Positions 860 through 48,097 of a stretch of DNA of 64,000 nt are shown piece after piece (within the stretch, counting starts at the first letter, position 1; the number at the start of each line of letters is the position of its first letter). The position numbers and the translations under genes are program-made. The notes beneath the pieces are model-generated. The model was not told where the DNA came from. It saw only the letters and a program-made list of their open reading frames with translations, and made no database searches. This DNA is from an uncultured Acidobacteriota bacterium. Lineage in GTDB: Bacteria > Acidobacteriota > Vicinamibacteria > Fen-336. The stretch spans positions 28,724 through 92,723 of the forward strand of contig CAZNNH010000004.1 in NCBI GenBank assembly GCA_964574335.1, in the 5' to 3' direction.

Positions 860-2377
<1,518 letters not shown>

Positions 2378-2435
2378 AGACTCTCCGACCCGCGGCGGGC
2401 GCGCCGCGGGAGCTAGCTTCCCACCACCTCGAGCG

Positions 2436-2993
2436 TCATCGGCCGGGCGCCTCTTCCAGGAGCCGTTGGCGCAGGAGCTGGAGGCGCCCGCGCAAGCTCC
2501 CGTCGTAGACACGTCCGGCGAGGCTCAGCCGGAGGCTACCCAGAAGCCCAGGCTCCACACGGTAGCTGAGCTCGACCGGCTTTCCGGCCAGCCGCTCGAC
2601 CGCCGCATGGATGGCCGACGCTTGGCCTTCGTCGAGGGCCATCGCCGACGCCACCTCCGCCGACAGCACGCCTCGGTGCTGGTTCCACGCCTGGCCGTAC
2701 GCCTTGTTGATGGCCGGCAACAGCCGGAGCCGGTTCCGTCCCGCCAGAAGCACCAGCAGCCGCACCAGGAGCGGTCGGCCCCGGCCCTCCCAAACCGCCT
2801 CGACCAGCCGCCGCTTCTTGTCGGCGGTCAACGCCGGATGGCCCAAGGCCACGCCGAGCTCGGCGTGCTGCTCCAACACCGAAACGGCCCGTTGGAGCTC
2901 CGCCCGCAGCCCCTCGGCCTCCCCTGAGGCCAGGGCCAAGTCGAGCAGCGCCCGCGCGTAACGTCGGGCGGCGCCGGTCTCGGTCTTCCTCAC
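2436..2993 (-). CDS. atpH: F0F1 ATP synthase delta (OSCP) subunit
   Basis: A 185-aa protein whose length and profile ([20 protein letters not shown]...) match OSCP/delta. It lies immediately upstream of atpA. Confidence 0.85.
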
Positions 2994-3089
2994 GGTCGCT
3001 CCGCGCCGGCTCGGCGAGGTGGTCTCAGGCGGAAGGGCACGGGATCGATCCCTTGTGGCCGCCCCGGGCGCGGGGCGAAAAAACGCTGC

Positions 3090-3118
3090 AGGTTAGCATG
3101 GGGTCCGAGACGAGTCAA
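3090..3118 (-). promoter_or_regulatory. Candidate sigma-70 promoter for atpH-atpA-atpG. On the minus strand the -35 is TTGACT (3113-3118), followed by a 17-nt spacer and a -10 TAACCT (3090-3095).
   Basis: Read directly from the sequence. The -35 is perfect and the -10 is weak. It lies 95 nt upstream of the atpH start in an otherwise GC-rich spacer. Confidence 0.3.
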
Positions 3119-3158
3119 AATGCTCGATCGGCGTCGACCCTATATACAACAAGGTATC

Positions 3159-3524
3159 CTATGGCTGCTTCGGCTCGGGGGCCGGACCGGGCCCACCCAT
3201 GTCGCAGTCACCCTGGAACAGGGCCCCCTCTTCGATCAACAGGCGGGGGGTCACCAGGGTCGCCTGAACCCGGGAGCCGGACAGCAGCTCGATCCGCTGG
3301 CGGCCCCGCACGTGCCCCTTGACGCTGCCCCGGATCGAGACCACCCCGCAATCGATCTCGGCCTCCACCGTCCCCGCCTCTCCGACGATCAGCGTGTTCT
3401 CGGAGACCACCCGGCCCCTGATGTGGCCGTCCACCCGGAACGTGTTTCGGAAACGGAGCTCTCCGAGGAACTCGCTGCCCTGATCCATGAAGCCGTTCAG
3501 CTCCTCGACCGCCTTGCCTCTCAT
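3159..3524 (-). CDS. Bactofilin (DUF583 beta-helical cytoskeletal protein), 121 aa
   Basis: This is the C-terminal 121 aa of track ORF 3159..4247, starting at ATG 3522-3524. Repeats LIVGEAGTVEAEIDCGVVSIRGSVKGHVRG...LIEEGALFQGDCDM match the bactofilin consensus (compare Caulobacter BacA ...SIEQGAYFEG). The upstream part of the track ORF is an out-of-frame overlap with parB. Confidence 0.8.
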   Translation of the reverse strand: MRGKAVEELNGFMDQGSEFLGELRFRNTFRVDGHIRGRVVSENTLIVGEAGTVEAEIDCGVVSIRGSVKGHVRGRQRIELLSGSRVQATLVTPRLLIEEGALFQGDCDMGGPGPAPEPKQP

Positions 3525-3550
3525 GGTCGGACCCCCGCGGTCATCACCGG

Positions 3551-4405
3551 TCACACCGATCTTCCGGACCGGACCAGTTGCTCGAAGAGCCGGGTCAGCT
3601 CGGCTTCGTCGGCAAAGGACACCTTCAGCACCCCTCCGCGCCGGCGCCGCACGATCTCGACACGGGTCCCGAGCGCGGCCCGGAGCCTCTCCTCGGCCGC
3701 CCGGGTGTTGGGTTCTGCGCGAGCGCCGCGCTTGGCGCTCGGCTGACGCTCCGACGACGACACGCGTCGCTCGACCTCGCGCACCGACAGGCCACGCCGG
3801 GCGGTCTCGCGCGCCAGCGTCACCTGGTCCTCCACCCGGTCGAGAGCGAGCAGGGCTCGCGCGTGTCCGGCCTCCAGGCGTCCCTCGGCAAGAAGCTCCC
3901 TGACCACCTGGGGCAGCCTCAATAGACGCAGGGTGTTGGTTACCGTGGAGCGCTCGCGGCCCACGCGCCGCGCGATCTCCTCTTGGGTCAAGCCCAGCTC
4001 CTGCTGGAGGCGCTGGTAGGCCTGGGCCTCTTCGAGCGCACTCAGGTCCTCGCGCTGCAGGTTCTCGACCAGGGCCAGCTCCAGCAGCCGCTCGTCGGCA
4101 ACCTCGCGGACGGTCACGGGCACCGTGCGCAGGCCCAGCTTCTGGGCTGCGCGCCAGCGGCGTTCGCCGGCCACGATCTGGAAGCGTCCGCCTCGAGGCC
4201 GGACCAGGATCGGCTGCACGATACCCGACTCCCGGATCGAGGCGCACAGCTCGTCCAGGCGCTCTGGCGCTATCCGGCTTCGTGGCTGGCGGGGATTCGG
4301 CTCGAGGTTCCCGATCGGGACCTCGGCGCTGGCCTCCCGCCCCTCGGGCGCCTCAGGCTCCGGAATCAGGGCCGAGAGGCCCTTCCCCAGCGCGCGTCGT
4401 TTCAT
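3551..4405 (-). CDS. parB: Chromosome partitioning protein ParB (Spo0J)
   Basis: MKRRALGKGLSALIP... carries the ParB box GERRWRAA and an HTH. Length is 284 aa. Confidence 0.95.
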   Translation of the reverse strand: MKRRALGKGLSALIPEPEAPEGREASAEVPIGNLEPNPRQPRSRIAPERLDELCASIRESGIVQPILVRPRGGRFQIVAGERRWRAAQKLGLRTVPVTVREVADERLLELALVENLQREDLSALEEAQAYQRLQQELGLTQEEIARRVGRERSTVTNTLRLLRLPQVVRELLAEGRLEAGHARALLALDRVEDQVTLARETARRGLSVREVERRVSSSERQPSAKRGARAEPNTRAAEERLRAALGTRVEIVRRRRGGVLKVSFADEAELTRLFEQLVRSGRSV

Positions 4406-5159
4406 GGCCCATCACTTCTCTTGCCAGCTCCAGGTAGGCCTCGGCTCCCTTGGAGCGAATGTCATAGGTCAGGATCGGCTTGCCGAAGCTGGGAGCCTCC
4501 CCCAGCCGGACCGATCGCGGGATCGTGGTCTGATAGACCGCCTCCTTGAAGTGCCCTCGGACCTCGGCCATCACCTGCTGGGTCAGGTTCATGCGCTGGT
4601 CGACCATGGTGAGCAGCACACCCTCGAGCGCCAGCCGTGGGTTGATGCCAGCCTGCACGCGGCGCAGTGTGGACACCAGGTCCGAGATACCCTCCAGCGC
4701 GAAGTACTCGCACTGGAGTGGGATGAGCGCTCCGTCGGCGGCGGCGAGAGCGTTCAGCGTGAGCAGGCCGAGGCTCGGCGGACAGTCGATCAACGTGTAC
4801 TCGAACCGCTGCCTTGCCGAGTCCAACGCGTCCCGGAGGCGGTACTCCCGCCGCTCTGTCGGGACCAGCTCAACTTCGGCGCCGGTCAGGTTCCGATCAG
4901 AGGGTGCGAGGGACAGGTGAGTCAGGTCGGTTCCCAACAGCACCTCTTCCAGCGGCCGCCCCTCGATCAGGACGTCATAGACGCTCGGACGTGGTTCCTT
5001 GGTCTTGCGTCCCAGGCCGGAGGTGAGGTTGCCCTGGGGATCGAGGTCGATCGCCAGGACGGATCGCTCGGCGGCCGCCAGCGACGCGGCCAGGTTGATG
5101 GCGGTGGTGGTCTTGCCAACGCCGCCCTTCTGGTTGGTGATGGCTATCACGCGACCCAC
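4353..5159 (-). CDS. parA: Chromosome partitioning ATPase ParA (Soj)
   Basis: MGRVIAITNQKGGVGKTTTAINLAA contains the deviant Walker A motif. Length is 268 aa. It overlaps the parB start by 53 nt. Confidence 0.95.
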   Translation of the reverse strand: MGRVIAITNQKGGVGKTTTAINLAASLAAAERSVLAIDLDPQGNLTSGLGRKTKEPRPSVYDVLIEGRPLEEVLLGTDLTHLSLAPSDRNLTGAEVELVPTERREYRLRDALDSARQRFEYTLIDCPPSLGLLTLNALAAADGALIPLQCEYFALEGISDLVSTLRRVQAGINPRLALEGVLLTMVDQRMNLTQQVMAEVRGHFKEAVYQTTIPRSVRLGEAPSFGKPILTYDIRSKGAEAYLELAREVMGHETTRAGEGPLGPDSGA

Positions 5160-5188
5160 GCCGACCTCCGGGCGCGGAGGATACCACA

Positions 5189-5204
5189 GGTTTCACGTGG
5201 AACG
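5189..5204. promoter_or_regulatory. parS: parS centromere-like site (GGTTTCACGTGGAACG)
   Basis: 13 of 16 positions match the parS consensus TGTTTCACGTGAAACA. It sits 30 bp upstream of parA and overlaps the rsmG stop codon. Confidence 0.7.
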
Positions 5205-5732
5205 TGGCCCCCCCCCCGAGTGCCGGAAGGCATGCAGCCGTGGGGATTTGAGGCCCGGCTGCGGGTGGAAGTCGGGGTCTGACAGGGGCTCCCTCCCGAG
5301 AGTCAAGACCAGCCCGCCAGGGCGCACCAGGTGGCGGAGCTGACCGGGAGTGAGCCGCAGCGCGCGAACCGTTACCGTCTGTGCGGGTGGCCCCCCGTAC
5401 TCGTCGTGCCTCGCGCGCACCACCCGCACATCCCCCCGCTCCAGGCACCGCACGACGTCGCGCAGGAACGCCCACCTCTTCAGGCGGGGCTCCAGCAGCG
5501 TAACCGAGAGATCGGGCCGCAGCAGCGCAAGAACCAACCCCGGCGATCCGTTTCCGCTTCCCACATCGACGAGATCCGGACCCTCCACCCACTCCAGGGC
5601 CTCCACCACCGGCTCGACGAGAACCCGGACCCGTGCGGCCTCGTCGCCCGCCGCTGTCAAGTTGGTCCGCCGACCCCAGGCGGCGACCTGATCGAGATAG
5701 ATGGAGATCGGCTCGATGCTGGCACGGGGCAC
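5193..5732 (-). CDS. rsmG: 16S rRNA (guanine527-N7)-methyltransferase RsmG (GidB). The start codon is uncertain.
   Basis: The SAM-methyltransferase core (LVDVGSGNGSPGLVLALL) and the N-terminal block ISIYLDQVAAWGRRTNLTA align to E. coli RsmG. The first in-frame start after the jag stop is GTG at 5730-5732. Track ORF 5193..6029 extends through jag in another frame, which cannot be real. Confidence 0.75.
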   Translation of the reverse strand: MPRASIEPISIYLDQVAAWGRRTNLTAAGDEAARVRVLVEPVVEALEWVEGPDLVDVGSGNGSPGLVLALLRPDLSVTLLEPRLKRWAFLRDVVRCLERGDVRVVRARHDEYGGPPAQTVTVRALRLTPGQLRHLVRPGGLVLTLGREPLSDPDFHPQPGLKSPRLHAFRHSGGGPRST

Positions 5733-8325: not shown

Positions 8326-8704
8326 CAGGGCGCGCGCGGCGAGCGTCCTTCCGGGCGGCGAGTCGTCGCATCCTCTGACGGAACTCACCTTCGAGTGCAT
8401 CGTAGGACTGTGCCGCGATCCCCTGTTTTGCGACGACCACAAGATCCCCCGGCCAGGGGATGGTGGACTTGTTCCGTCTGTAGATCTCGCGAAGCAGGCG
8501 CTTGACCCGGTTACGGATGGCCGCGCATCCGACCTTTCGGCTAACCGCCAGACCCAACCGGGAGTGCCCCAGCCGGGTTCCCACCGCGACCAGCACGAAG
8601 TGCTGGCCGTCGAGTCGAAGCCCCCGGCCCAAGGCGCGCCGAAAGTCTCGTCCTGCCCGGAGCCTCTCATGGCCACGGAGCCGCGAGCCCGGCGCCTTCG
8701 CCAA
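8312..8704 (-). CDS. rnpA: Ribonuclease P protein component
   Basis: A basic 130-aa protein with an RnpA-like LRxxxRLxxxxDFxxV...G profile. It sits in the conserved rpmH-rnpA-yidD-yidC position. The track start is a TTG. Confidence 0.85.
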
Positions 8705-8709
8705 CGCCT

Positions 8710-8844
8710 CTAGACGCTCAGGCGATGGCGCCCCTTCTGGCGACGCCGCTTCAGCACCAGTCGGCCGCTGCGGCTCCGCATCCGCACCAAGAACCCGTGC
8801 GTTCTCTTCCGCTTGCGGTTGTTCGGCTGATAAGTCCTCTTCAT
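8710..8844 (-). CDS. rpmH: 50S ribosomal protein L34. This gene is not in the ORF track because it is shorter than 60 aa.
   Basis: Hand translation of the minus strand gives [44 protein letters not shown], the near-universal L34 sequence. Confidence 0.95.
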
Positions 8845-9194
8845 GATTCCCCGTGCCTCTTGCTCGCCCCGGGCCCCACGCTCGGACCCTCCATGGGAAA
8901 AGATTGATTGTCGTCCATGTCCCGGTTGCCTGTCAAACCGGCCCTTCCTTGAGCCTTGTCACACCCCGGCTCGTGTGCTATTTTTTGATGCTGCGCCGAG
9001 TAAGGCTTCTCCTTCGTTGGACACGCCAGGGATGGCCGTTTTCCACAAGTGTTGAAATTCCTGTGCAAAAGGTTTTTCGCCCGACCTGGCTCCTCCTTGC
9101 CGCCGAGGAGTCTTCGTAACTGTATAACCAGCAAAGAGTTACTCCATTATGGGCGTTCGTTGGTGAGACCCGCTCTCGGGCTGGGAGACCGACC
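8845..9194. other. oriC: Candidate oriC in the rpmH-dnaA intergenic region
   Basis: Genes diverge here (minus strand to the left, plus strand to the right). The region is locally AT-rich (tgctattttttgatg at 8978-8992). DnaA-box-like 9-mers are TTTTCCACA (9029-9037, 8/9 to TTATCCACA), TGTGCAAAA (9052-9060) and TGTATAACC (9111-9119). Confidence 0.5.
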
Positions 9195-10508
9195 ATGAAC
9201 CTCTGGGACCAGGTTCTCCTACGCCTCGAGCACAAGCTCAACCGGCACAGCTTCGCCACTTGGTTCCGACCGACCTCCTTTCTCTATCTCGAGGGCTCGA
9301 ACCTCGGCGTTCAGGTCCCCAACGCCCAGTTCAAGGACTGGCTCAACAAGAACTACCGTGGCGTCATCTCCGAGGCGCTCCGGGAGCTCGGCCAGGAAGG
9401 TATCGAGCCGCTCTTCGAGGCCAGCGCCGACGCCCTCGCCCCGACCGACACGTCTGCCTCACCACCCGAGGCCGAGGTCGATGCCGCTTCGACCCGTCAC
9501 CTGAACCCAAAGTACACGTTCGAGAGCTTCGTGGTCGGATCCTCCAATCAGTTCGCCCATGCCGCCGCCCGTGCCGTCGCAGAGATCCCGTCCAAGTCCT
9601 ACAACCCCCTCTTCCTCTACGGCGGCGTCGGTCTCGGCAAGACCCACCTCATGCACGCGATCGGCCACTACATTCGGGCCCGCAACCGCCACTTGCGCCT
9701 GGTCTACATCTCGTCCGATCGCTTCTTCAACGAGATGATCAACGCCATCCGCTTCGATCGGCTTCCCGCCTTCCGTCACAAGTACCGCAACGTGGACGTG
9801 CTGCTGGTGGACGACATCCAGTTCATTGCCGGCAAAGACCGCACCCAGGAGGAGTTCTTCCACATCTTCAACTCCCTCCACGACGGCCAGAAGCAGATCG
9901 TCATCTCCTCGGACTGCCCACCCAGGCAGATCCCGACCCTGGAAGAGCGTCTCCACAGCCGTTTCGAATGGGGCCTGATTGCCGACATCCAGCCCCCCGA
10001 CATCGAGACCAAGGTCGCCATTCTTCGCAAGAAGGCCGCCGCTGAGCGCGTCGAGATCCCCGAGAACGTGGCCCTGTTCATCGCGAGCAAGGTACGCACC
10101 AACGTACGCGAGCTCGAGGGAAGCTTGATCCGGCTGATTGCCTACGCCAGCTTGACCGGGCGTGATATCGACCTGGGACTCACCCAGGAGGTGCTCCGAG
10201 ACATCCTCCACACCGACGAGAAGCCGATCACCATGGAGATGATCCAGAAGTTCGTGGCCGATCACTACAACGTCAAGCTCCCGGAGCTCAAGGCCAAGAA
10301 CAACTCCAAGGCCGTCGCCTTCCCGCGGCAGGTTGCCATGTACCTGACCAAGACCCTGACCGGCGCGTCGCTGCCCGAGATTGGAAAGGGCTTCGGAGGC
10401 AAGCATCATTCCACCGTCATCCACTCGGTGCGCAAGATCGAGGGGGAGCGGAAGAAGAACCCCGAGTTCGACAGGCTTATCAACAGCTTCGTCCAAGCAT
10501 TTCGATGA
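9195..10508 (+). CDS. dnaA: Chromosomal replication initiator DnaA
   Basis: A 437-aa protein with Walker A (GGVGLGKTHLMHAIG) and a C-terminal DnaA-box-binding domain. Confidence 0.97.
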   Translation: MNLWDQVLLRLEHKLNRHSFATWFRPTSFLYLEGSNLGVQVPNAQFKDWLNKNYRGVISEALRELGQEGIEPLFEASADALAPTDTSASPPEAEVDAASTRHLNPKYTFESFVVGSSNQFAHAAARAVAEIPSKSYNPLFLYGGVGLGKTHLMHAIGHYIRARNRHLRLVYISSDRFFNEMINAIRFDRLPAFRHKYRNVDVLLVDDIQFIAGKDRTQEEFFHIFNSLHDGQKQIVISSDCPPRQIPTLEERLHSRFEWGLIADIQPPDIETKVAILRKKAAAERVEIPENVALFIASKVRTNVRELEGSLIRLIAYASLTGRDIDLGLTQEVLRDILHTDEKPITMEMIQKFVADHYNVKLPELKAKNNSKAVAFPRQVAMYLTKTLTGASLPEIGKGFGGKHHSTVIHSVRKIEGERKKNPEFDRLINSFVQAFR

Positions 10509-17942: not shown

Positions 17943-17996
17943 AGTGCGGGTTGCGTCGGCCTTTGGAACCGGCGCGGATCGACCAAGGAGGACGGA

Positions 17997-18671
17997 ATGA
18001 ACCATCGTGGGGCGGTCATCCTGACGATCGCCGGCCTAGTGCTGGCCGGCGCGGCCTGCGGCCACCGCCAGCAGGGAGTGGTGGACAACTACTTCCGTGC
18101 GGTCAATGCCGGAGACAACCAGACGCTCAGCAGCTTCGCCCTGGTCGGCTTCGACCAGAAGGTCGACAACTGGAAGATCGTGGCTGGTCATCCCGAGACC
18201 GAGAGCCCGGCGCCGCTGGTCGAGCTGGCCCAAGGGGTCAGCGACGCGGAAGCCGCCCTGGCCGCCAACAAGAAGGAGTACAACGCCTATTTCCTCGACC
18301 ACCCGTCGGAGGTGGACCAGGTTCGCGAGCTGCTGCGGACCGAGGCACGAATCCCCACCAAGCTCCAGAAGTACGCAGAGGACTGGCAGGCCTTCATCGA
18401 GAAGGAGAAGGAGCTGAAGCGTGCCCTGGCGGAGGCCAAGGAGGCCCTGGCCCACGAGAAGAAGATCGCCGCCCTCTCGGTCGAGCCCGACGACGGTATC
18501 GAGAAGCTGGTGGGTACCGTCCACACTCAGGACATCGACCTGATGCTGACCATCGATGGCCAGGAGAAGCCGTACACCATAACCCTCCGGAAGTACGACC
18601 TGAGCGAAACCGAGGGGGGACCGGAGCGGCTCAGCCGTTGGGTGATCTGCGAGCTGAAGCCCACCGCCTAG
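17997..18671 (+). CDS. Hypothetical secreted or lipoprotein with a K/E-rich coiled-coil segment
   Basis: A strong AAGGAGGA RBS is present. The signal peptide is MNHRGAVILTIAGLVLAGAAC. No recognisable catalytic motif was found. Confidence 0.5.
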   Translation: MNHRGAVILTIAGLVLAGAACGHRQQGVVDNYFRAVNAGDNQTLSSFALVGFDQKVDNWKIVAGHPETESPAPLVELAQGVSDAEAALAANKKEYNAYFLDHPSEVDQVRELLRTEARIPTKLQKYAEDWQAFIEKEKELKRALAEAKEALAHEKKIAALSVEPDDGIEKLVGTVHTQDIDLMLTIDGQEKPYTITLRKYDLSETEGGPERLSRWVICELKPTA

Positions 18672-27801: not shown

Positions 27802-28632
27802 CTACTGAAGCACGGGTCGCCCCGCCTGGCTCCAAGCCGTGAACCAGAAGCTCCCGCACTCGCCGGCGGCCTGGCTCAGCCGACCGCTGATGATGTCGCG
27901 GATGCGATCGGCCAGGGCCTCGTAGTAGAGCTCGGTGTAGCCGCCCCGGCCGCGGTGGGCGAGGTCTTCCTCGTAGAGCAGGTTGTCGACCCAGATGTAG
28001 CTGGCCAGGATCAAGCCGAAGACGTGCTCGTACGGGTCGTCCAGGAAGTGAGCGGCGTCCGGTTTCACCTTGATCGCCTTCTCGGCGGCCTCGGGGAACT
28101 TCTGGCTCAGGCGCACCCAGAGCCCGTGCTGTTCGGTCATCTGCCCGTCGAAGTTCTCGGTCAGGGCCAGTGGGTTGTGCAGGTCGGTCACCAGGCTGGC
28201 GAGGGTGTCGGACTCGGCGAGAATGCGCCCCTTGTCAGCGGCGCGGAAGGCCTCTACCAGGCGGGCGTAGGCGTCGTCGATGAGCCACGGTAGGCGACCG
28301 ACCCTGTCGGCTGTCGCGCCGAAACGCGCCTTCAGCTCCTTTTCGGAGCGGGGTATGTCGCGGAACGGGAACGGGGCCACCAGATCGGCCGCGAACCGTC
28401 GCTCCGGTCCCTCTGTAGGCAACTCGGCATCTGGGGCCAGGCTGGGAAGCTCGTCGCGGTGGTCACGGTAGAACTTCTTGAGCCCCTTGGGCAGGGTATC
28501 GACCGCAGCGGAGGTGACCAGTCGGTGCGCCACCGGGCCCCACGCCCAAGCGGCCCCAGGATTGAGGGCCAACGTCGCCGCCAGGCACGCACCCACCAAC
28601 ACCGGCCACCGTCGCTCCCGCGGGTCGATCAT
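27802..28632 (-). CDS. Secreted protein that may have an S1/P1-nuclease or zinc phospholipase C-like fold
   Basis: A signal peptide is followed by a mature N-terminus WGPVAH, matching the WGxxGH start of the S1/P1 family. Multiple His/Asp residues are present. The assignment rests on motifs only. Confidence 0.35.
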   Translation of the reverse strand: MIDPRERRWPVLVGACLAATLALNPGAAWAWGPVAHRLVTSAAVDTLPKGLKKFYRDHRDELPSLAPDAELPTEGPERRFAADLVAPFPFRDIPRSEKELKARFGATADRVGRLPWLIDDAYARLVEAFRAADKGRILAESDTLASLVTDLHNPLALTENFDGQMTEQHGLWVRLSQKFPEAAEKAIKVKPDAAHFLDDPYEHVFGLILASYIWVDNLLYEEDLAHRGRGGYTELYYEALADRIRDIISGRLSQAAGECGSFWFTAWSQAGRPVLQ

Positions 28633-28648
28633 CGTCTCCCTCCACTCT

Positions 28649-29374
28649 TCACCGAGCCACCCGCGCCACCGTCAGCAGGCGGACCGCACGCGCCCCGGCC
28701 TGCCGAAGCGCCGAAGCACAGGCACGGCTGGTGGCCCCGGTCGTACACACGTCGTCCACCAGCACGACCTTCTTTCCATGAATCCGAGCCCGACGTCGAA
28801 CCACGAACGCGCCGGCTACGTTTCGGCGTCGGCCCGCCGCCGAGAGCCCGGTTTGTGGCGCTGTCTCCTTGCGGCGGGTCAGGGCGTCCTTCTCCACCGG
28901 GACACCCGCCCGTCGCGCCAGCGCCGTGGCGATCAGCTCGGCCTGATTGTAGCCGCGCTGCCGGCGCCTTCGCGGGTGGAGGGGAATCGGCACCACCACC
29001 GCCCCCGGATCGAAGAGCGCCCGCACCTCTGCCTCCCGCCACAGTAGCTCGGCGAGCCGCCCCGACACCCGCTGGCGGCCCTTGAACTTGAGCTCCTGAA
29101 CCAGGATCTTGAGGGGGCCTTCGTAGGGACCGAGGCTGGCCCCTGCGTCGAAGTGGGAGAGCCCCCGCCGACATCGCCCGCAGGGTCCAGAAACGGTCTC
29201 GGGCAGGATCGTGCCACACTCACAGGCCCCGCCGCGGTGGCGCGGGAGACGTTGCCAGCACCGCTCGCACAGCGGCCCCTGCAGAGGTCGCTCGACCGGG
29301 TCGCTGCACGCCGGGCAACGAGCCGGAAAGACCAGGGCCAGGACCGGGTCGATCACCCGTGCCAGAGAAGCCAT
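28649..29374 (-). CDS. comF: ComF-family protein (phosphoribosyltransferase-domain competence protein)
   Basis: An N-terminal C4 zinc ribbon (CPACSD...CERC) is followed by a C-terminal PRTase motif VVLVDDVCTTGAT. Confidence 0.8.
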   Translation of the reverse strand: MASLARVIDPVLALVFPARCPACSDPVERPLQGPLCERCWQRLPRHRGGACECGTILPETVSGPCGRCRRGLSHFDAGASLGPYEGPLKILVQELKFKGRQRVSGRLAELLWREAEVRALFDPGAVVVPIPLHPRRRRQRGYNQAELIATALARRAGVPVEKDALTRRKETAPQTGLSAAGRRRNVAGAFVVRRRARIHGKKVVLVDDVCTTGATSRACASALRQAGARAVRLLTVARVAR

Positions 29375-36463: not shown

Positions 36464-37243
36464 CTACTGAAGGAGGATGCGCGTCCCGCGGATCTTCTGG
36501 GGAGAGATGACTCCGAGGAAGTTGGGGAGCAGGCGATCCATCAGCTCGAAGTACGACGACAGCGGCGACACCTTCTGGTCCGCCCCGTAGAGCACCTCCT
36601 CGGTGAAGCGCTCCTTGTGAAGCACCTCGCCGGAGCGACCGTCGACGAACACGAAGTCGGCGTCGAGGCTGAACCCTCTCCGCTCCAGAAAGCGGTTCTG
36701 CCGGATGAGCCGGGGCCGGTTCGAGGCGTCACGAACCACTCGCTCCTCGGCCTGATAGCCGGATCGGTTCTTCTCCTCGAAGCTCACCCTGCCGGTGACG
36801 ATCAGCGGTGACTGATACTCCTCGCCGATCTTGCGCCAGAAGGCGGCATCTTGCAGGGCCTGGCCGGCCCGCAGGTCGTACTGCTCCCGGTCTTCCTTGG
36901 TGTAGTGCCCCTCCTCGCCGAGGCTCTGCTTGATCTGGTCCAGGGCGTCGTAGAGAGGGGGGCGGTCCGGCTCCAAGACCTGCAGCTTCGAGTTCGAGCG
37001 GAGCTGGTTCTGGAGCAGCCGGGCGGTCTCCGAGGCAACGTCCACGTCGCCCGCAGTCAGCTCGCCCACGAAGCCCGCCACCAGCACGCGACGGAACGCC
37101 CTCACGTCGATCTTGCTCTGCAGCGGCACCTGTACCGGCACCTCTACGTAGCCGGTGCAGCTCGACAGGGCGAGGAGGGTGATGACACCCAGCCCGAGGC
37201 TAGGGACGCTGCCGTGCTTGGCTCTTCCGGTTCCGCTTGTCAT
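36464..37243 (-). CDS. Hypothetical lipoprotein
   Basis: The 259-aa tail of track ORF 36464..37543 starts MTSGTGRAKHGSVPSLGLGVITLLALSSC (lipobox LSSC). Upstream residues of the track ORF overlap the TPR gene in another frame. Confidence 0.5.
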   Translation of the reverse strand: MTSGTGRAKHGSVPSLGLGVITLLALSSCTGYVEVPVQVPLQSKIDVRAFRRVLVAGFVGELTAGDVDVASETARLLQNQLRSNSKLQVLEPDRPPLYDALDQIKQSLGEEGHYTKEDREQYDLRAGQALQDAAFWRKIGEEYQSPLIVTGRVSFEEKNRSGYQAEERVVRDASNRPRLIRQNRFLERRGFSLDADFVFVDGRSGEVLHKERFTEEVLYGADQKVSPLSSYFELMDRLLPNFLGVISPQKIRGTRILLQ

Positions 37244-37547
37244 CGGCTTCCCTGAACAGGTCGTAGTTCTGCTGGATGTAGACGTCCCCGGGCCGCAGCT
37301 CGAGGGCCCGCTCGTAGGCCTTGCGGGCCTTGTCGAACTCCCCCGCCTGCTCCAGCGCCACCGCCAGGTCGTTGAGCGCGTGGGCATTGTCGGGGTCGAG
37401 CAGCACCGCCTTCTCGAACCGGAACTGAGCCTCACGCCACAGCCCCTTCCTGGCCACCTGGATGCCGAAGCGGAGCTCCTCCTTGCTCGTTGAGACGGAG
37501 CCGGTCTGGGCCAGCAGCAACAGGGAGAGTGGAATCGCGGCAAGCAT
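37200..37547 (-). CDS. Secreted TPR-repeat protein
   Basis: Signal peptide MLAAIPLSLLLLAQTGS, followed by TPR helices (ALNDLAVALEQAGEFDKARKAYERALELRP). Confidence 0.6.
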   Translation of the reverse strand: MLAAIPLSLLLLAQTGSVSTSKEELRFGIQVARKGLWREAQFRFEKAVLLDPDNAHALNDLAVALEQAGEFDKARKAYERALELRPGDVYIQQNYDLFREADDKRNRKSQARQRP

Positions 37548-37622
37548 GGGGCCTTACTCCGAGAAGACGTGGCGTGGTATGTCCTTGGTTACGCGATCCT
37601 TTGATGTTATGCGAGCCCTCTT

Positions 37623-41535: not shown

Positions 41536-42882
41536 ATGGACCGCCAGGTCACGATCGTCGGGGGCGGGCTGGCGGGCGCCGAGGCGGCCTGGCAACTGGC
41601 TCGCCGCGGCGTGTCGGTCCGCCTGCTCGAGATGCGCCCGCAACGCTCGACGCCGGCGCATCGGACGGACCTGCTCGCGGAGCTCGTCTGCTCCAACAGC
41701 CTGCGGGGCAACGCCCTCGAGCAGCCGGCCGGACTGCTCAAGGAGGAGATGCGCCGTCTCGACTCCCTGATCGTCCGAGTCGCCGACCAGGTCCGGGTGC
41801 CGGCGGGCAGCGCGCTGGCGGTCGACCGGGCCCGGTTTGCCGAGGGAGTGACCGCCGCCCTGCGGGCCCGACCCGAGGTGCAGATCGAGCGTCGTGAGGT
41901 CGACCGTATCCCCGAAGGGGCGGTGGTGGTGCTCGCTACCGGACCCCTCACCGCGGACACCCTGGCCCAGGACATCGCCGCCTTCGTCGGCGAGTCGCAC
42001 CTGTACTTCTTCGACGCCATCAGCCCGGTGGTGGAGACCGAGAGCATCGACACCCACCGGACGTTCCGCGCCTCCCGCTACGGTCGGGGAGGCGACGACT
42101 ACCTCAACTGCCCGATGAGCGAGGGAGAGTACCGGGCCTTCCTCGCGGAGTTGCTGGCGGCCGAGCCGGCCACCCTCCACGACTTCGAGCGCGGGCTCTT
42201 CTTCGAAGGTTGCCTGCCGATCGAGGTGCTGGCCCACCGGGGGCCCGAGGCGCTTCTGTTTGGGCCCCTCAAGCCCGTCGGGCTCGTCGACCCGCGAACC
42301 GGTCGCCGCCCGTTCGCCGTGGTCCAGCTCCGTCAGGACGACCTGGCCGCCAGCCATCACTCGATGGTCGGCTTCCAGACCCAGATCCGGTGGGGCGAGC
42401 AGGCGCGGGTGTTCCGGATGATCCCAGGCCTCGAGCAGGCCGAGTTCATCCGCTTCGGGACGGTCCACCGCAACACCTACGTGAACGCTCCACGGATCCT
42501 GGACGCCACCTTCGAGAGCCGTCGTCGCCCCGGCCTGTTCCTCGCCGGACAGATGTCGGGAGTGGAGGGCTACGTGGAATCGGCGGCCTCCGGGCTAGTC
42601 GCCGGGGTCGGCGCCGCCGCCCGGATGCGGGGCCAGACCCCTCCGAGGTTCCCCGAGCAGACGGCCCTCGGAGCGCTGGGGCGGCACGTCTCGGGCGGCA
42701 ACGCCCGCAACTACCAGCCCACCAACATCCAGTTTGGCCTATTGCCAGATCTTGGATTCCGCGTCCGCGAGAAGAAGGCTCGCCGTCAGGCGATCTCCCG
42801 ACGCGCCCTCGAGTCCCTGGACAGGTTCCGAGCCCAGGTGCTGGGCGAGGAGGGCCCCGAGGCCGGCCGGGCGGGCGGATGA
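41536..42882 (+). CDS. trmFO: Methylenetetrahydrofolate--tRNA-(uracil54-C5)-methyltransferase TrmFO (Gid)
   Basis: FAD-binding N-terminus MDRQVTIVGGGLAGAEAAWQLA and GidA-like fold. Length is 448 aa. Confidence 0.9.
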   Translation: MDRQVTIVGGGLAGAEAAWQLARRGVSVRLLEMRPQRSTPAHRTDLLAELVCSNSLRGNALEQPAGLLKEEMRRLDSLIVRVADQVRVPAGSALAVDRARFAEGVTAALRARPEVQIERREVDRIPEGAVVVLATGPLTADTLAQDIAAFVGESHLYFFDAISPVVETESIDTHRTFRASRYGRGGDDYLNCPMSEGEYRAFLAELLAAEPATLHDFERGLFFEGCLPIEVLAHRGPEALLFGPLKPVGLVDPRTGRRPFAVVQLRQDDLAASHHSMVGFQTQIRWGEQARVFRMIPGLEQAEFIRFGTVHRNTYVNAPRILDATFESRRRPGLFLAGQMSGVEGYVESAASGLVAGVGAAARMRGQTPPRFPEQTALGALGRHVSGGNARNYQPTNIQFGLLPDLGFRVREKKARRQAISRRALESLDRFRAQVLGEEGPEAGRAGG

Positions 42883-43760
42883 AGCGCGCGCTGGCCGCCT
42901 TTGTCCGTCACCTCGAGGCGGAGCGCAACCTGTCTCCCCATACGACCAAGGCGTATCGGGAGGATCTCGAGCAGTTCGTGGCCCACGCCGCCTCGTCCCT
43001 TGGCCGCTCGCCGCGCCCGGCCGAGATCGACCACCTGATGATCCGGAGCTTTCTGGCCCGGCTCCACGCGCGCGGCCTCAAGAAGACCACGACGGGCCGG
43101 AAGCTGGCGGCCATTCGGACCTTCTTTCGCTTCCTCTGCCGCGAAGGACAGCTCCAGACGAATCCCAGCCGGGCCCTGCTCTCGCCCCGCCAGGAGCGGC
43201 GCATCCCGAGCCGGCTGGAGGAAAGTGAGGTGGCGGACCTGCTGGACATCCCCCAGAAGGGAAGAGCGGCCATCAAAGCTCGCGCCCTTCTGGAGCTGCT
43301 CTACTCCACAGGAATCCGGTGCGCCGAGCTGGTGGGGCTGGATCTCGATGACGTGGATCGCGACGCCCGCATGCTCAGGGTTCTGGGCAAAGGCAGAAAA
43401 GAGCGCATCGTTCCCTTCGGCAGTCGCGCCCTCCAGGCACTGACAGAGTACCTCCCGATCCGGGCCGCCACCCACCCGAGGACGGACGCCCTCTTCGTGA
43501 ACCCACAGGGAGAGAGGCTCACGGACCGCGGAGTGAGGTACATCGTGGCTCGCCGGGTGAGGCAGGTGGCGGCACGCAAGAAGATCAGTCCCCACACCCT
43601 CCGTCACAGCTTCGCCACCCACCTGCTCGAAAGAGGTGCCGACCTCCGCGCCATCCAGGAGCTTCTCGGCCACGCCAGCCTCTCTACAACCCAGCGGTAC
43701 ACCCACGTAGACGCCCGGCATCTTCTGGCGATATACAGAAAGACCCACCCACGCGCTTGA
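42879..43760 (+). CDS. xerC: Tyrosine recombinase XerC/XerD (CodV-like chromosome dimer resolution)
   Basis: The true ATG at 42879 overlaps the trmFO stop (ATGA). The catalytic residues R...HxxR...Y are present (HTLRHSFATHLLERGADLRAIQELLGHASLSTTQRYTH). Confidence 0.9.
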   Translation: MKRALAAFVRHLEAERNLSPHTTKAYREDLEQFVAHAASSLGRSPRPAEIDHLMIRSFLARLHARGLKKTTTGRKLAAIRTFFRFLCREGQLQTNPSRALLSPRQERRIPSRLEESEVADLLDIPQKGRAAIKARALLELLYSTGIRCAELVGLDLDDVDRDARMLRVLGKGRKERIVPFGSRALQALTEYLPIRAATHPRTDALFVNPQGERLTDRGVRYIVARRVRQVAARKKISPHTLRHSFATHLLERGADLRAIQELLGHASLSTTQRYTHVDARHLLAIYRKTHPRA

Positions 43761-43837
43761 TCGCCGCCTGCCAGGACTCAGCCCAACGAGTCGAGCCGTC
43801 CACAAGCGGGGGAAGAGCGTCCTATCATTCAAGGCCG

Positions 43838-44437
43838 ATGGCGCCCAGTGATGAGCAGCTCGTTCAGGCGGCGCAGTCTGGGGACAGTGCCGCCTTCGGC
43901 CAGCTCGTGGATCGGTGGGATCGGAAGATCCGGGGCGCCATCTACCGTGTCCTGGGCTCGGACGACGAGGCCCGGGACCTGACCCAGGAGGCGTTCTTCA
44001 AGGCGTACCGAGGGCTTCCGTCGTTCAAGCAGGAGGCCCGCTTCTCCTCCTGGCTGTACCAGATCGCGCTCAATCTCTGTCGCGACCGGATGCGGCGCAA
44101 GAGAGGCCGCATCCACATGAGCCTGGAAGAGCTCGAGCTTGCCGGATCGGCCCGCCTGATCGAGAGCGGGCCCTCCGTCCAGGAGATGGCCGAGGCCGGC
44201 GAGCTGTCGCGGGTCGTGGCCACGGCAGTTGCGGCGCTGCCTGCCGAGCAGCGCGAGGTGATCGTGCTCAAGGAGTACCAGGAGCTGACCTTCGCGGAGA
44301 TCGCGGAGGTGCTGGCTCTCCCGGTATCGACCGTCAAGACCCGCCTGTATCGAGGCCTCGGGCAGCTTCGCCAGAGCCTCGAACGGCGTGGCATCCACGG
44401 CTCGACGGCGTTACCGCGAGCTTCCGGAGAATCCTGA
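43838..44437 (+). CDS. ECF sigma factor
   Basis: ATG 43838 with an AAGG RBS. Region 2 (DLTQEAFFKAYRGL...WLYQIALNLCRDRMR) and region 4 (LTFAEIAEVLALPVSTVKTRL) are present. Confidence 0.85.
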   Translation: MAPSDEQLVQAAQSGDSAAFGQLVDRWDRKIRGAIYRVLGSDDEARDLTQEAFFKAYRGLPSFKQEARFSSWLYQIALNLCRDRMRRKRGRIHMSLEELELAGSARLIESGPSVQEMAEAGELSRVVATAVAALPAEQREVIVLKEYQELTFAEIAEVLALPVSTVKTRLYRGLGQLRQSLERRGIHGSTALPRASGES

Positions 44438-45060
44438 TGGACTGCAGCGAGGTGCGAGACCAGATGCTCGACGTGCTCTACGGCGAGGCCGACGCCGACA
44501 TCCGGCGTCGCGTCGAGGAGCACCACGCCCAGTGCCCGGCCTGTCGGCACGAGCTCGAGGCGCTCCGCGGGGTGCGCCGCGCTCTTGCCCAGTGGCGCAT
44601 CCCGGAAAGACGATCTGTCCATGCCTTCCGCCTCGGCTGGCTGGCAGCCGCCGCCGTCCTGCTGGTGTCGCTGGGCGCCGCCTTGGGGCTTTCCGGGTCG
44701 GAGGTACGTTTCGAGAATGGCCGCCTGGCCTTCAGGCTCGGGCGCAGCGACGTCGAAAGCCGGCTCGCCGAGCAGGAGGCCCGCCACCGCACGGAGATGG
44801 CCCGCCTCCGCAGCGAGCTAGCGACGCGCGACAGCCTGCTGGCGGAGGTCGACCAGCGGCTGCGTGCCAGCGAGGCCCGGCAGGCGGCGCTGCTGAGCGC
44901 GGGCCTCAGCGAGCTGACCGCCCGCAACGAGGCCCAGCGACGATACGACCTGGCCCGGGTCAGCGCCAGCCTCTCCTATCTCGATGGGCGCACTGGCCAG
45001 CAACTGGCCCGGCAGACGGAGCTGATGGGCTATCTGTTGCAGGCCTCCGACCAGCGATGA
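44437..45060 (+). CDS. Anti-sigma factor with a zinc-finger (HxxxCxxC) and one TM segment
   Basis: MDCSEVRDQMLDVLYGEADADIRRRVEEHHAQCPACRHELEAL, then TM AFRLGWLAAAAVLLVSLGAALGL, then a periplasmic coiled coil. Its ATG overlaps the sigma stop (ATGA). Confidence 0.75.
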   Translation: MDCSEVRDQMLDVLYGEADADIRRRVEEHHAQCPACRHELEALRGVRRALAQWRIPERRSVHAFRLGWLAAAAVLLVSLGAALGLSGSEVRFENGRLAFRLGRSDVESRLAEQEARHRTEMARLRSELATRDSLLAEVDQRLRASEARQAALLSAGLSELTARNEAQRRYDLARVSASLSYLDGRTGQQLARQTELMGYLLQASDQR

Positions 45061-46073
45061 GCCGAAAGCCCACCCTCGTTCTCCTTGCCCTCGCTCTGGC
45101 GGCACCCTCCTGGGCGCAGACGGACGCCGCCCTGCGTGACCAGCTCGAGGGCTTCGGCGAAGCCCTCGATCGAGCGGTCCAGGCGGTCAGCCGACCCGGC
45201 ACCCTCCATGTCCTGAGTGGGGAGCACACCAGCCGAGGCTTCTACCTCAAGGGGTACGGTGCGGTCTTCACGCTCCCCCCCCGTGCCCTGCCACCCACCC
45301 AGCCGCCGCGCCCGCTCGAGACCTCTCGGGGCAAGGCCTCCGGGTCGTTGGTCCGGGCCATGCAGGAGGTCGAGGGCAGCCTGGACGAAGACCCGTCCGA
45401 GCCGATACGCCAGCTCCTGGAGAGTCGGCTGCGGGAGCTCGGCCCGTCCCAGAGCGCTGCCGTCTCCGAGCCGACGAGACCCACCGACGCCGCCCAGCCC
45501 CCGACTCCCCCTGACTGGGCGGCGTTGCAGGCCCGCCTCGAGGCCCGCAAGCAGATCGAGCGCCAGCGCGACCAGCAGCTCCACACCCTCGAGGTGCAGA
45601 TCGAGGCGTTCCAGCGGGACGCCGAGCGGATGCGGGAGCAGGCCGAGCGTCACATGGAGGAGCTGCGCCGGCAGATCAAGACGCGGGCCGTCTTTGCCAA
45701 GCAGGCGACCCCTCCCCCCTCACTCCCTCCATCCCCGCCCGCGAGCGTCCTGCCGGCGCCGCCCTGGAGCTTCTGGTTCGAGGTGTCCTCCGAGGCCGAG
45801 ACCCAGCCGCGCTCCCAGGAAGCCGTGGTTGAAAGCGTGCGGGCTGCCGTAACCGGGGTGGTCGAGAAGGAGGGCGGGCGGCTTGCGATGCTCGCCCCGG
45901 AGGAGTCGGTGGTGGTGGCGGTGGACTTCGTCCCTCCCGACGTCTTCGTGCCACGGCTTCGGCCGGAGCGAACGCTGGTGGTTCGGGTCAAGAAGAAGGA
46001 GATCGACGCCTACCGCGCCGGCCGGCTCGGTGCCGAGGAACTGGGCCGCCGTCTGGAGGTCGTCGAGTACTGA
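45057..46073 (+). CDS. Secreted hypothetical protein (coiled-coil, Pro-rich), translationally coupled to the anti-sigma factor
   Basis: ATGA overlap with the upstream gene. Signal peptide MSRKPTLVLLALALAAPSWAQT. No known domain was found. Confidence 0.5.
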   Translation: MSRKPTLVLLALALAAPSWAQTDAALRDQLEGFGEALDRAVQAVSRPGTLHVLSGEHTSRGFYLKGYGAVFTLPPRALPPTQPPRPLETSRGKASGSLVRAMQEVEGSLDEDPSEPIRQLLESRLRELGPSQSAAVSEPTRPTDAAQPPTPPDWAALQARLEARKQIERQRDQQLHTLEVQIEAFQRDAERMREQAERHMEELRRQIKTRAVFAKQATPPPSLPPSPPASVLPAPPWSFWFEVSSEAETQPRSQEAVVESVRAAVTGVVEKEGGRLAMLAPEESVVVAVDFVPPDVFVPRLRPERTLVVRVKKKEIDAYRAGRLGAEELGRRLEVVEY

Positions 46074-46148
46074 GGGGCGGCGCCGCATCGTTGACCCCAG
46101 CCGAGGGCCGCCCCTATACTGAGGCCCCTCCCGAAGGGTAACCGTCCT

Positions 46149-46691: not shown

Positions 46692-48097
46692 TGCCGATCC
46701 AGCTTCCGGCGTCGAGCCAGGAGCTCCACGACCTCGACCAGCTCACCCCACGACAGATCGTGGCCGAGCTCGACCGCTACGTGATCGGCCAAGACCAGGC
46801 CAAGCGGGCGGTGGCGATCGCCCTGCGAAACCGGGTGCGCCGTCAACGGCTCCCGCCGGAGCTGGCCACCGAGATCACCCCCCGCAACATCCTCATGATC
46901 GGCCCCACCGGGGTGGGCAAGACCGAGATCGCCCGGCGGCTGGCGCGGATGTCGAGCAGCCCTTTCGTCAAGGTCGAGGCATCCAAGTTCACCGAGGTCG
47001 GCTACGTGGGACGCGACGTCGAGTCGATCATCCGGGACCTCGTCGAAGCTGCCGTCCACCTGGTGCGCCGCGAGCGGCGGGCCGAGGTCCAGGACCGGGC
47101 CCGGCAGAATGTCGAGGAGCAGCTCCTCGACCTGCTGCTGCCGCCGCTTCGATCGCGACCGGCAGAGACGGCCGGTGCCGACGCCGAAGCGGCCGCATCC
47201 TCGCCCACCGAGTCCTTTCGGACCACACGGGAGCGCCTCCGCGCCCAGCTCCGGGCCGGCGAGCTCGACGCCCGCACCGTCGAGGTGGATGTCCCGCAGC
47301 GGAGCTTCCCCACCTTCCAGGTGATGAGCTCCCAGGGCGTCGAGGAGATGGACATCAACGTCAAGGACCTCCTGCCCGGGATCTTCGGCGGTCGCACCAA
47401 GCGCCGCACGTTGCCCGTCTCGGAGGCCCGCGAGGTCCTGCTCCGGGAGGAGGAGAACCGACTGGTGGACACCGAGCAGGTCTCCCGCCAGGCGGTGGAG
47501 CGAGCCCAGAGCTCGGGCATCGTCTTCCTGGACGAGATCGACAAGGTGGCGGGTCGCGAGGGCAGCCATGGGCCAGAGGTCTCGCGCGAAGGCGTCCAGC
47601 GCGACATCCTTCCCATCGTCGAGGGCACCACCGTTACCACCAAGCATGGCGCCGTGCGCACCGACCACATCCTCTTCATCGCCGCCGGGGCGTTCCACGT
47701 CTCGAAGCCCAGCGACCTGATCCCGGAGCTCCAGGGGCGCTTCCCGATCCGGGTCGAGCTCGCGTCCCTCTCCCGCGAAGACCTGCACCGGATCCTGACC
47801 GAGCCACGCAACGCCCTGCTCTCGCAGCACCAGGCGCTGCTCAAGACCGAGGGGCTGGAGCTCGACTTCGCCCCCGACGCGATCGCCGAGATCGCTCGCT
47901 TCGCCGCTGAGGTCAACGACGCCGCCGAGAACATCGGGGCCCGGCGGCTCGCCACCGTGCTCGAACGCCTGCTGGACGAAGTCTCCTTCGAAGGTCCAGC
48001 GGAGAGCCCTCGTCAGGTGCACATCGATGCCGAGGAGGTGCGCCGCAAGTTGGCCCCCCTGGTCAAGGACCAGGACCTCAGTCGCTTCATCCTGTGA
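46691..48097 (+). CDS. hslU: ATP-dependent protease ATPase subunit HslU (ClpY)
   Basis: ILMIGPTGVGKTEIARRLA (Walker A). It has a GTG start abutting the hslV stop. Confidence 0.93.
   Translation: MPIQLPASSQELHDLDQLTPRQIVAELDRYVIGQDQAKRAVAIALRNRVRRQRLPPELATEITPRNILMIGPTGVGKTEIARRLARMSSSPFVKVEASKFTEVGYVGRDVESIIRDLVEAAVHLVRRERRAEVQDRARQNVEEQLLDLLLPPLRSRPAETAGADAEAAASSPTESFRTTRERLRAQLRAGELDARTVEVDVPQRSFPTFQVMSSQGVEEMDINVKDLLPGIFGGRTKRRTLPVSEAREVLLREEENRLVDTEQVSRQAVERAQSSGIVFLDEIDKVAGREGSHGPEVSREGVQRDILPIVEGTTVTTKHGAVRTDHILFIAAGAFHVSKPSDLIPELQGRFPIRVELASLSREDLHRILTEPRNALLSQHQALLKTEGLELDFAPDAIAEIARFAAEVNDAAENIGARRLATVLERLLDEVSFEGPAESPRQVHIDAEEVRRKLAPLVKDQDLSRFIL

Follow-up and report, generated by a model that had tools for sequence, protein, structure and literature searches.

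What is a bactofilin gene doing between a chromosome segregation operon and a set of ATP synthase genes? The question is raised by a stretch of 64,000 nucleotides (nt) of contig CAZNNH010000004.1 (hereafter the window), from an uncultured Acidobacteriota bacterium of the class Vicinamibacteria, in which all the genes of concern here lie on the minus strand. An earlier note, made from the letters of this DNA, had drawn attention to a bactofilin gene directly after parAB, beside a parS-like palindrome and ahead of what seemed to be a truncated ATP synthase operon. The answer we favor, with a probability of about 0.75, is that the bactofilin is encoded by the last cistron of an origin-region gene cluster and is of one kind with two other parAB-linked bactofilins, Myxococcus xanthus BacM and Bdellovibrio bacteriovorus Bd3904, and that the atpHAGDC genes which follow it are a separate F1 operon. 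The features on which this answer turns are these (aa, amino acids):

5189-5204, strandless: parS-like site GGTTTCACGTGGAACG, 29 nt upstream of the parA GTG and sharing bases with the rsmG stop codon
5159-4353, minus strand: parA, Walker-type partition ATPase with the motif KGGVGKT (Pfam AAA_31, E=3.6e-59, and CbiA)
4405-3551, minus strand: parB, with ParB_N (GERRWRA), HTH_ParB and the ParB_C dimerisation domain (Pfam; NCBIfam TIGR00180, 192 bits against a cut-off of 58)
3524-3159, minus strand: bactofilin, 121 aa, ATG at 3524 (Pfam PF04519), last gene of the co-directional cluster that runs from rpmH through parB
3118..3090, minus strand: atpHAGDC promoter, TTGACT-17-(TGc)TAACCT, from its sequence and its conservation in relatives
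2993-2436, minus strand: atpH, F1 delta subunit/OSCP (Pfam OSCP, E=1e-38; TIGR01145, 103.9 bits against a cut-off of 57.5)
2377-860, minus strand: atpA, F1 alpha subunit (Pfam ATP-synt_ab_N, ATP-synt_ab and ATP-synt_ab_C)
849-1, minus strand: atpG, F1 gamma subunit, which runs off the window a few codons short of its stop (tblastn to relatives with PF00231)

Is the open reading frame (ORF) at 3159-3524 truly a bactofilin gene? Its coordinates in the earlier note are right, with the ATG 27 nt from the parB stop (a 26-nt gap), and the profile search that the note had called for bears out the identity. The 121-aa product scores 86.6 bits for the bactofilin family PF04519 (DUF583), for which the cut-off is 27.9 (E=1.4e-24); its residues 13-107 cover profile positions 3-97 of 98, and sequence matches in the PDB are to the bactofilin of Thermus thermophilus (6RIA, E=4.9e-10) and to BacA of Caulobacter crescentus (2N3D, E=2.7e-8). 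An AlphaFold2 model built with 45 homologues is all-beta over residues 11-104, with a mean predicted local distance difference test score (pLDDT) of 87.8, and its top three Foldseek matches are the solved bactofilin entries 6RIA, 6RIB and 2N3D, each at a probability of 1.00. The TM-score is 0.88 when normalised to 2N3D and 0.76 when normalised to the query, with a root mean square deviation of 1.4 A; the Foldseek E-values are modest for this small repetitive fold (7.5e-3 to 7.9e-2). Together the Pfam match, the PDB sequence matches and the predicted structure confirm a canonical single-domain beta-helical bactofilin. The ATG start agrees with the closest homologues and has a GGGGG Shine-Dalgarno-like run 7 nt upstream; a GTG start further upstream that would overlap the parB stop (GTGA) was rejected, as the closest homologues start at the position equivalent to the ATG. 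Two cysteines, C59 (IDCG) and C107 (GDC), are invariant in the 45 homologues. An exact-sequence look-up of the protein returned no record.

Two regions of the protein have a bearing on how it might work. Toward the C-terminus, the motif GALFQG (GAxFxG) aligns with GAFFQG of BacA and GAVFVG of the T. thermophilus bactofilin (TtBac), and its phenylalanine, Phe103, is invariant across the 45 homologues. In BacA a change to Arg of F130, the conserved Phe of the C-terminal interface, abolishes polymerisation (PMC12448750), and we liken Phe103 to F130 by the shared motif, not by residue-level correspondence. The protein would be expected to self-assemble, free of nucleotide, into non-polar filaments through an end-to-end interface that includes Phe103, and these filaments could act as a scaffold. 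At the other end the window protein begins MRGKAVEELNGF (MRGKAVEE...) and most relatives begin MIKLKGL; the window protein has no MFSKxxK-like membrane-targeting peptide and lacks the hydrophobic second residue of MFSKQAKS, the canonical membrane-targeting sequence of BacA. Such a peptide is typical of bactofilins, with exceptions (PMC12448750), and is not a defining feature, so the membership of the window protein in the family stands. The tails that flank the beta-helix are short, about 11 residues N-terminal and about 14 C-terminal.

How constant is the position of this gene behind parB? We scanned one genome per GTDB species for relatives, which gave 36 loci (L numbers designate these and the other loci named below), all of Vicinamibacteria or Acidobacteriota, and read their synteny by tblastn with the window proteins. 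A bactofilin gene lies directly downstream of parB in all 35 loci for which upstream sequence was available, and at every locus, the window included, there is one bactofilin gene only. The common order is dnaA, then, across the strand switch, yidC-(jag)-rsmG-parA-parB-bactofilin-X-atpH-atpA-atpG-atpD-atpC, and metagenomic contigs have it likewise. Soil metagenomes are rich in bactofilin homologues at 65-93% identity, and those that carry a name come from metagenome-assembled genomes (MAGs) of Vicinamibacteria or Acidobacteria. The median identity of the window protein to its relatives is 71% for the bactofilin and 71% for ParA, followed by ParB (67%), YidC (56%), RsmG (51%) and AtpH (43%), which shows the bactofilin to be under strong purifying selection and as conserved as ParA. 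In five contigs from long-read MAGs (L003, L010, L023, L040 and L045) genes are broken into several frames (parB, atpA and dnaA, and in L045 the bactofilin gene itself); the breaks come from indel errors in the assemblies, not from pseudogenes, and make the sequences look more divergent than they are.

The linkage also reaches beyond the class. An exhaustive search of cluster representatives returned 11,209 homologues, those of the Vicinamibacteria type first, with a step down thereafter to about 45-54% identity, and we looked up six representatives from this lower tier (L044, L045, L046, L047, L048 and L049). One, L045, was rejected as an outgroup because it is a Vicinamibacteria-type sequence corrupted by frameshifts. 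Three others, L044, L046 and L049, all from far-removed metagenomic lineages, keep the order rsmG-parA-parB-bactofilin at ParB identities of 44-50% and bactofilin identities of 45-54%, in DNA of widely differing G+C content (71%, 39% and 60%, respectively), and L046 has a parS between gidB (rsmG) and parA. Downstream of the bactofilin gene in L046 and L049 are unrelated genes on the opposite strand. The L047 bactofilin gene has another context, adjoining a two-component system, and the contig of L048, from Myxococcota, begins 123 nt upstream of its bactofilin gene. The three parB-linked outgroup proteins (L044:6001-6459, L046:6001-6375 and L049:3001-3486) have in common L-x-G-F-x-D just before the beta-helix; at this position L047:5001-5456 and L048:124-579, which are not demonstrably parB-linked, have A-F/L-L-G-K-G. 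In this tiny sample L-x-G-F-x-D may be a subfamily signature.

Could all this be no more than gene order inherited neutrally near the origin, with no functional meaning? The origin-proximal order rpmH-rnpA-yidC-jag-gidB-parAB is notoriously stable in bacteria, and a stable order of that sort is visible in the synteny of our relatives. Against this, the adjacency of parB and the bactofilin gene survives where ParB identity has fallen to 44-50%, where G+C content ranges from 39 to 71% and where the flanks have been reshuffled, and the gaps between the two genes are tiny or negative: 26 nt in the window, 7 nt in L001 and one shared base in L049. We consider neutral inheritance very unlikely. The earlier note had held that the linkage of parA, parB and the bactofilin gene is no coincidence, and the synteny comparison it had proposed upholds this, through 35 of 35 Vicinamibacteria loci and three distant lineages. 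The linkage is real, and the conservation of the bactofilin, the persistence of the arrangement in distant lineages and the published cases of it speak for selection rather than accident.

The parS-like site that the earlier note had placed just upstream of parA is present, although its own statistics are weak. Relative to the 16-bp consensus TGTTTCACGTGAAACA, GGTTTCACGTGGAACG has 3 mismatches (13 of 16 positions, or 13 of 14 in the core); it is the only match with no more than 3 mismatches in the 64 kb, against a chance expectation of 0.10, and 10 of 100 shuffles gave one. What led us to accept the site despite this is the conservation of its position in relatives. One or two parS-type sites lie no more than 400 nt upstream of parA in 27 of 38 related loci, several of which carry a perfect TGTTTCACGTGAAACA, and in 8 more loci parS lies further upstream, mostly in an rsmG-parA interval that holds an inserted extra ORF. 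Elsewhere in the 10-kb flanks on either side of the related loci there is no parS, L022 with a single additional site being the exception. L037 (CGTTTCACGTGGAACG) and L023 (TGTTTCACGTGGAACG) have variants nearly identical to the window's site, the half-sites often take the form GTTCCAC or GTGGAAC in this clade, and the overlap of the site with the rsmG stop codon recurs in relatives such as L001. On this comparison the parS-like site is a real conserved element. The locus has the deviant Walker A motif KGGVGKT expected of ParA, the GERRWRA motif, helix-turn-helix and dimerisation domain expected of ParB, and a predicted parS near the origin, as a ParABS system should. The ORFs of parA and parB have 53 nt in common (4353-4405), and those called in relatives have about 47-53 nt. 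The overlap is either unusually long or a sign that parB really starts further downstream.

If the bactofilin gene belongs with parAB, where does its transcription unit begin and end? The cluster extends upstream, toward dnaA, through these features:

8936..8907, minus strand: promoter-like element upstream of rpmH, TTGACA-18-GACAAT, homologue of an element in relatives
8844-8710, minus strand: rpmH, ribosomal protein L34, 44 aa (translation; relatives have a PF00468 gene at the equivalent place)
8704-8312, minus strand: rnpA, RNase P protein (Pfam PF00825, E=1.6e-25)
about 8406-8131 (start approximate), minus strand: yidD (Pfam PF01809, E=2e-29)
8124-6439, minus strand: yidC, membrane insertase (ORF and tblastn synteny; relatives' genes have PF14849 and PF02096)
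6442-5771, minus strand: jag, R3H-domain protein (Pfam R3H, E=2.1e-14), with a 4-nt overlap with the yidC stop
about 5831-5193 (start codon uncertain), minus strand: rsmG (gidB), 16S rRNA methyltransferase (Pfam GidB, E=7.1e-25)

From rpmH to the bactofilin gene, all gaps are at most 33 nt or the genes overlap; the gap between the bactofilin gene and atpH is 165 nt. Within that spacer, the earlier note's promoter, TTGACT-17-TAACCT, is indeed found at 3118..3090. It is conserved: 23 of 29 relatives, as well as L042, have ahead of atpH a motif of the form TTGACn-N17/18-TAnnnT that includes a TGn extended -10, no matter which gene comes before atpH, against a background of 0.015 per 310 nt. The whole spacer is 87% identical to that of L042. 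Across the loci, coding-strand matches to the motif are confined almost entirely to two places, 33 of them ahead of rpmH and 27 ahead of atpH, and no locus has one between parB and the bactofilin gene or between the bactofilin gene and selD, the usual next gene. In the 33 relatives the rpmH promoter, which is of the sigma-70 type, strongly conserved and located between dnaA and yidC, has the consensus TTGACA-N17/18-TAGACT and is followed by cTTTGtcc. A generic consensus scan of 2300-5500 for promoters and terminators returned nothing, and missed TTGACT-17-TAACCT because its -10 hexamer matches the consensus at only 3 of 6 positions. RNA folding of the 165-nt spacer against shuffled controls (z=-0.51) gave no evidence for a riboswitch.

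Spacing and conserved motifs thus suggest two transcription units, rpmH-rnpA-yidD-yidC-jag-rsmG-parA-parB-bactofilin and atpHAGDC. One promoter upstream of rpmH would drive the whole of the former, and the bactofilin would be made together with ParA and ParB. To our knowledge the promoters of Acidobacteriota are poorly characterised, and the two footprinted here by phylogenetic comparison, at rpmH and atpH, should be useful for the phylum. The pattern TTGACn-N16-19-TAnnnT has only three matches in the window, one of which, at 46091-46120 on the plus strand, sits 29 nt upstream of hslV (46149), with hslU next, and is likely the hslVU promoter.

Might the bactofilin and ATP synthase genes instead be a single functional or transcriptional unit, as their contact in the window could imply? 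The 165-nt spacer has no terminator-like structure, and strand and order are kept in the closest relatives. In 34 of the 36 relatives, however, the gene X between the bactofilin gene and atpH is selD, for selenide, water dikinase (TIGR00476, E=1.4e-101; in L001, for example, at 8506-9441). An initial label of thiL for this AIRS-domain gene was rejected when NCBIfam identified it as selD. Further, the conserved promoter stands directly upstream of atpH after any preceding gene, and in L046 and L049 it is the unrelated opposite-strand genes that follow parAB and the bactofilin gene. A joint unit is extremely unlikely, and the synteny may be said to have largely refuted it already. Only L013, L035, the window and its nearest relatives (L042) lack selD at this site, and in the window the gene is absent from the whole 64 kb; in the closest lineage, P0002, the bactofilin is 85% identical and the same 165-nt spacer is kept at 87% identity. 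The direct contact between the bactofilin gene and atpH exists because selD is absent from the window's lineage. The contact that the earlier note described, real in the window, is therefore a minority, lineage-specific arrangement and not the normal one. The absence of selD may mean that the lineage has lost selenium utilisation or encodes it elsewhere.

Nor are the ATP synthase genes truncated or unusual, as had been supposed. Relatives have atpH-A-G-D-C at the site, without atpB, atpE or atpF, and the ORFs scanned over the 64-kb window include no F0 gene or domain. F1-only units apart from the b, c and a genes are a standard layout, first described in Rhodospirillum rubrum and present in 89% of Alphaproteobacteria (PMC5709465). 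The window itself holds the delta, alpha and gamma genes and ends inside atpG, with 283 codons compared to 285 aa in relatives; beta and epsilon are placed from the relatives, beyond the window edge. We conclude that atpHAGDC forms a complete F1 operon, apart from the cluster, under a conserved sigma-70-type promoter of its own, which has an extended -10.

Several points weigh against the view that a bactofilin gene of the BacM and Bd3904 kind closes an origin-region cluster, ahead of a separate F1 operon. The -10 hexamer of the rpmH element in the window, GACAAT, deviates from the TAnnnT of relatives, with a G at position 1. No terminator-like hairpin was found after the bactofilin gene, either by the scan or by folding of the 165-nt spacer (z=-0.51 relative to shuffled sequences), so that some read-through into atpH may occur. 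That the cluster is transcribed jointly and from one promoter at its head we infer from how its genes are spaced and which motifs are conserved, and the likeness to BacM and Bd3904 is drawn from gene position and family, not from sequence orthology. Lastly, with the non-canonical N-terminus, the usual membrane-bound mode of bactofilins may not apply to the window protein.

Granted the cluster, what would the bactofilin do in it? The earlier note had argued from Myxococcus, in which bactofilins scaffold the ParABS machinery, that the linkage is functional, a plausible proposal that its own precedent does not support. The scaffold in M. xanthus consists of BacNOP with the adaptor PadC, which has a ParB-like domain, and these are encoded away from parAB (PMC5703909). 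The linked protein is BacM (MXAN_7475), whose gene is directly after parAB and is co-transcribed with parA-parB (PMC3899335, PMC5703909), and when it is deleted, growth and the localisation of ParA and ParB are unchanged; BacM acts in cell shape (PMC5703909, PMC3899335). The precedent was in this sense mis-aimed: because BacM is linked and has no ParAB effect, what it shows is linkage, without a demonstrated role in segregation.

Might the bactofilin nonetheless be a dedicated part of segregation, its filaments positioning ParB-parS and/or ParA as BacNOP and PadC do? We hold this to be doubtful, despite several observations in its favor. Throughout the class the gene is linked to parB without exception, the linkage persists where the downstream genes have changed, the protein is conserved as much as ParA, and a segregation role would explain why the gene has been retained in the parAB operon next to parS. 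The non-canonical N-terminus is compatible with a client that is not at the membrane, and BacNOP, which alone among bactofilins have been shown to position ParB-parS and ParA, are an example of such proteins organising ParABS (PMC5703909). Set against these are the phenotype of BacM, the only parAB-linked bactofilin studied genetically, and the dependence of BacNOP on PadC: no PadC-like gene was seen, parB being the sole ParB_N gene among the ORFs scanned across the window. The C-terminal tail of about 14 residues is also unlike the long tail of BacP, and any interaction with ParA or ParB would be hypothetical.

A second possibility, which we place a little below an even chance, is that the protein is a morphogenetic or other scaffold similar to BacM, for which the parAB operon provides cell-cycle co-expression and no physical partnership. 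BacM is the direct precedent, with an equal gene position, co-transcription and a phenotype in cell shape only, and most characterised bactofilins recruit peptidoglycan enzymes (PMC12448750, PMC10945521). The MIKLKGL of relatives, hydrophobic with lysines, is reminiscent of a membrane-targeting peptide. This fits less well with the absence of a peptidoglycan-enzyme gene (M23 peptidase or penicillin-binding protein) adjacent to the bactofilin gene in the window or in relatives, or with the loss of the hydrophobic N-terminal residues in the window's lineage, and co-expression alone poorly explains an adjacency conserved so deeply. That the protein has some role other than a BacM-like one, another client or the positioning of ParABS seems to us rather improbable.

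An alternative that would give the linkage greater weight, and which we think unlikely, is that the parB-linked bactofilins are an ancient, distinct subfamily that cooperates physically with ParB-parS or ParA and has for this reason been kept in the parAB operon. Its candidate marks would be the L-x-G-F-x-D signature, short tails and, often, the want of a canonical membrane-targeting peptide. If this were true, the subfamily would span Acidobacteriota, Myxococcota, Bdellovibrionota and at least one low-GC lineage, the missing ParAB phenotype of BacM would reflect redundancy with BacNOP, and in Vicinamibacteria the single linked bactofilin would count as the third protein of the segregation machinery. 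Cultured Vicinamibacteria, and other organisms that have one linked bactofilin, offer a cleaner setting for the segregation question than Myxococcus with its four paralogues.

The wider setting of the locus agrees with its assignment to the origin region. Divergent from the cluster, on the plus strand, are dnaA (9195-10508), dnaN and recF, and then gyrB and gyrA, with dnaA ~4 kb from the parS-like site; this is therefore a classical replication-origin neighbourhood, and the window is that of a Vicinamibacteria chromosome. Matches to E. coli-type DnaA boxes (TTATCCACA, with at most 1 mismatch) number 2 in the 64 kb against 1.9 expected, which is no enrichment; the switch in gene strand at about 8.9-9.2 kb likely marks the origin. 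A tRNA scan and an Rfam scan at the gathering threshold over the whole 64 kb gave no match. Farther away, a sigma factor of the extracytoplasmic function type (43757-44437, plus strand) is overlapped by a 561-aa ORF (44388-46073) that has no Pfam match and an atypical codon-position GC, and which may be an anti-sigma factor or spurious. Further ORFs without a Pfam match are at 17943-18671 and 48094-49365 on the plus strand and at 27802-28671, 36464-37588 and 42786-43832 on the minus strand.

What is new in these observations, and what is not? The arrangement of a bactofilin gene linked to parAB is already known, as is the split arrangement of the atp genes. The former had previously been noted only in passing, for Myxococcus and Bdellovibrio, and a literature search for bactofilins in Acidobacteria found no relevant paper. 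The new finding is the occurrence of the parAB-bactofilin arrangement in Acidobacteriota, where it is invariant across Vicinamibacteria, and its extension to distant lineages. The annotation of the origin region is also tidied, with two over-readings corrected, that of a truncated ATP synthase operon and that of a scaffolding precedent in Myxococcus.

We close by setting the locus beside the systems it most resembles. The atp genes are like the split F1 and F0 operons of the R. rubrum type in having a delta-alpha-gamma(-beta-epsilon) unit without a, c and b, under a promoter of its own; they differ in belonging to Acidobacteriota and in adjoining the origin cluster, with the F0 locus outside the window. 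With BacA of Caulobacter (2N3D) and the bactofilin of T. thermophilus (6RIA/6RIB) the protein shares the beta-helix fold and the conserved interface Phe, whereas both of those have a membrane-targeting peptide at the N-terminus (BacA: MFSKQAKS) and the window protein starts MRGKAVEE. BacA recruits the penicillin-binding protein PbpC, and no such client is evident at the window locus. BacNOP-PadC is comparable in that its bactofilins are polymers, a property predicted here from sequence and fold, and it differs in consisting of three co-assembling paralogues, one with a long C-terminal tail (BacP), together with PadC at a separate locus; no cluster of bactofilin paralogues is present in the window. 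BacM is, like the window protein, a single-domain bactofilin with short tails on both sides, encoded directly downstream of parA-parB on the same strand, although the next gene is for a lipoprotein rather than selD or atp, and the function is in cell shape without a ParAB phenotype. BacM is also reportedly processed at its N-terminus, going by the title of the 2011 study by Koch et al. In B. bacteriovorus an rRNA methyltransferase gene (bd3908) is followed by bd3907, parA, parB and bd3904, the gene for a bactofilin homologue, with parS nearby (PMC10547168). Methyltransferase, parA, parB and bactofilin thus come in the same order there as in the window; the difference is an extra gene between the methyltransferase gene and parA, an arrangement also met with in certain Vicinamibacteria loci (L004, for example).

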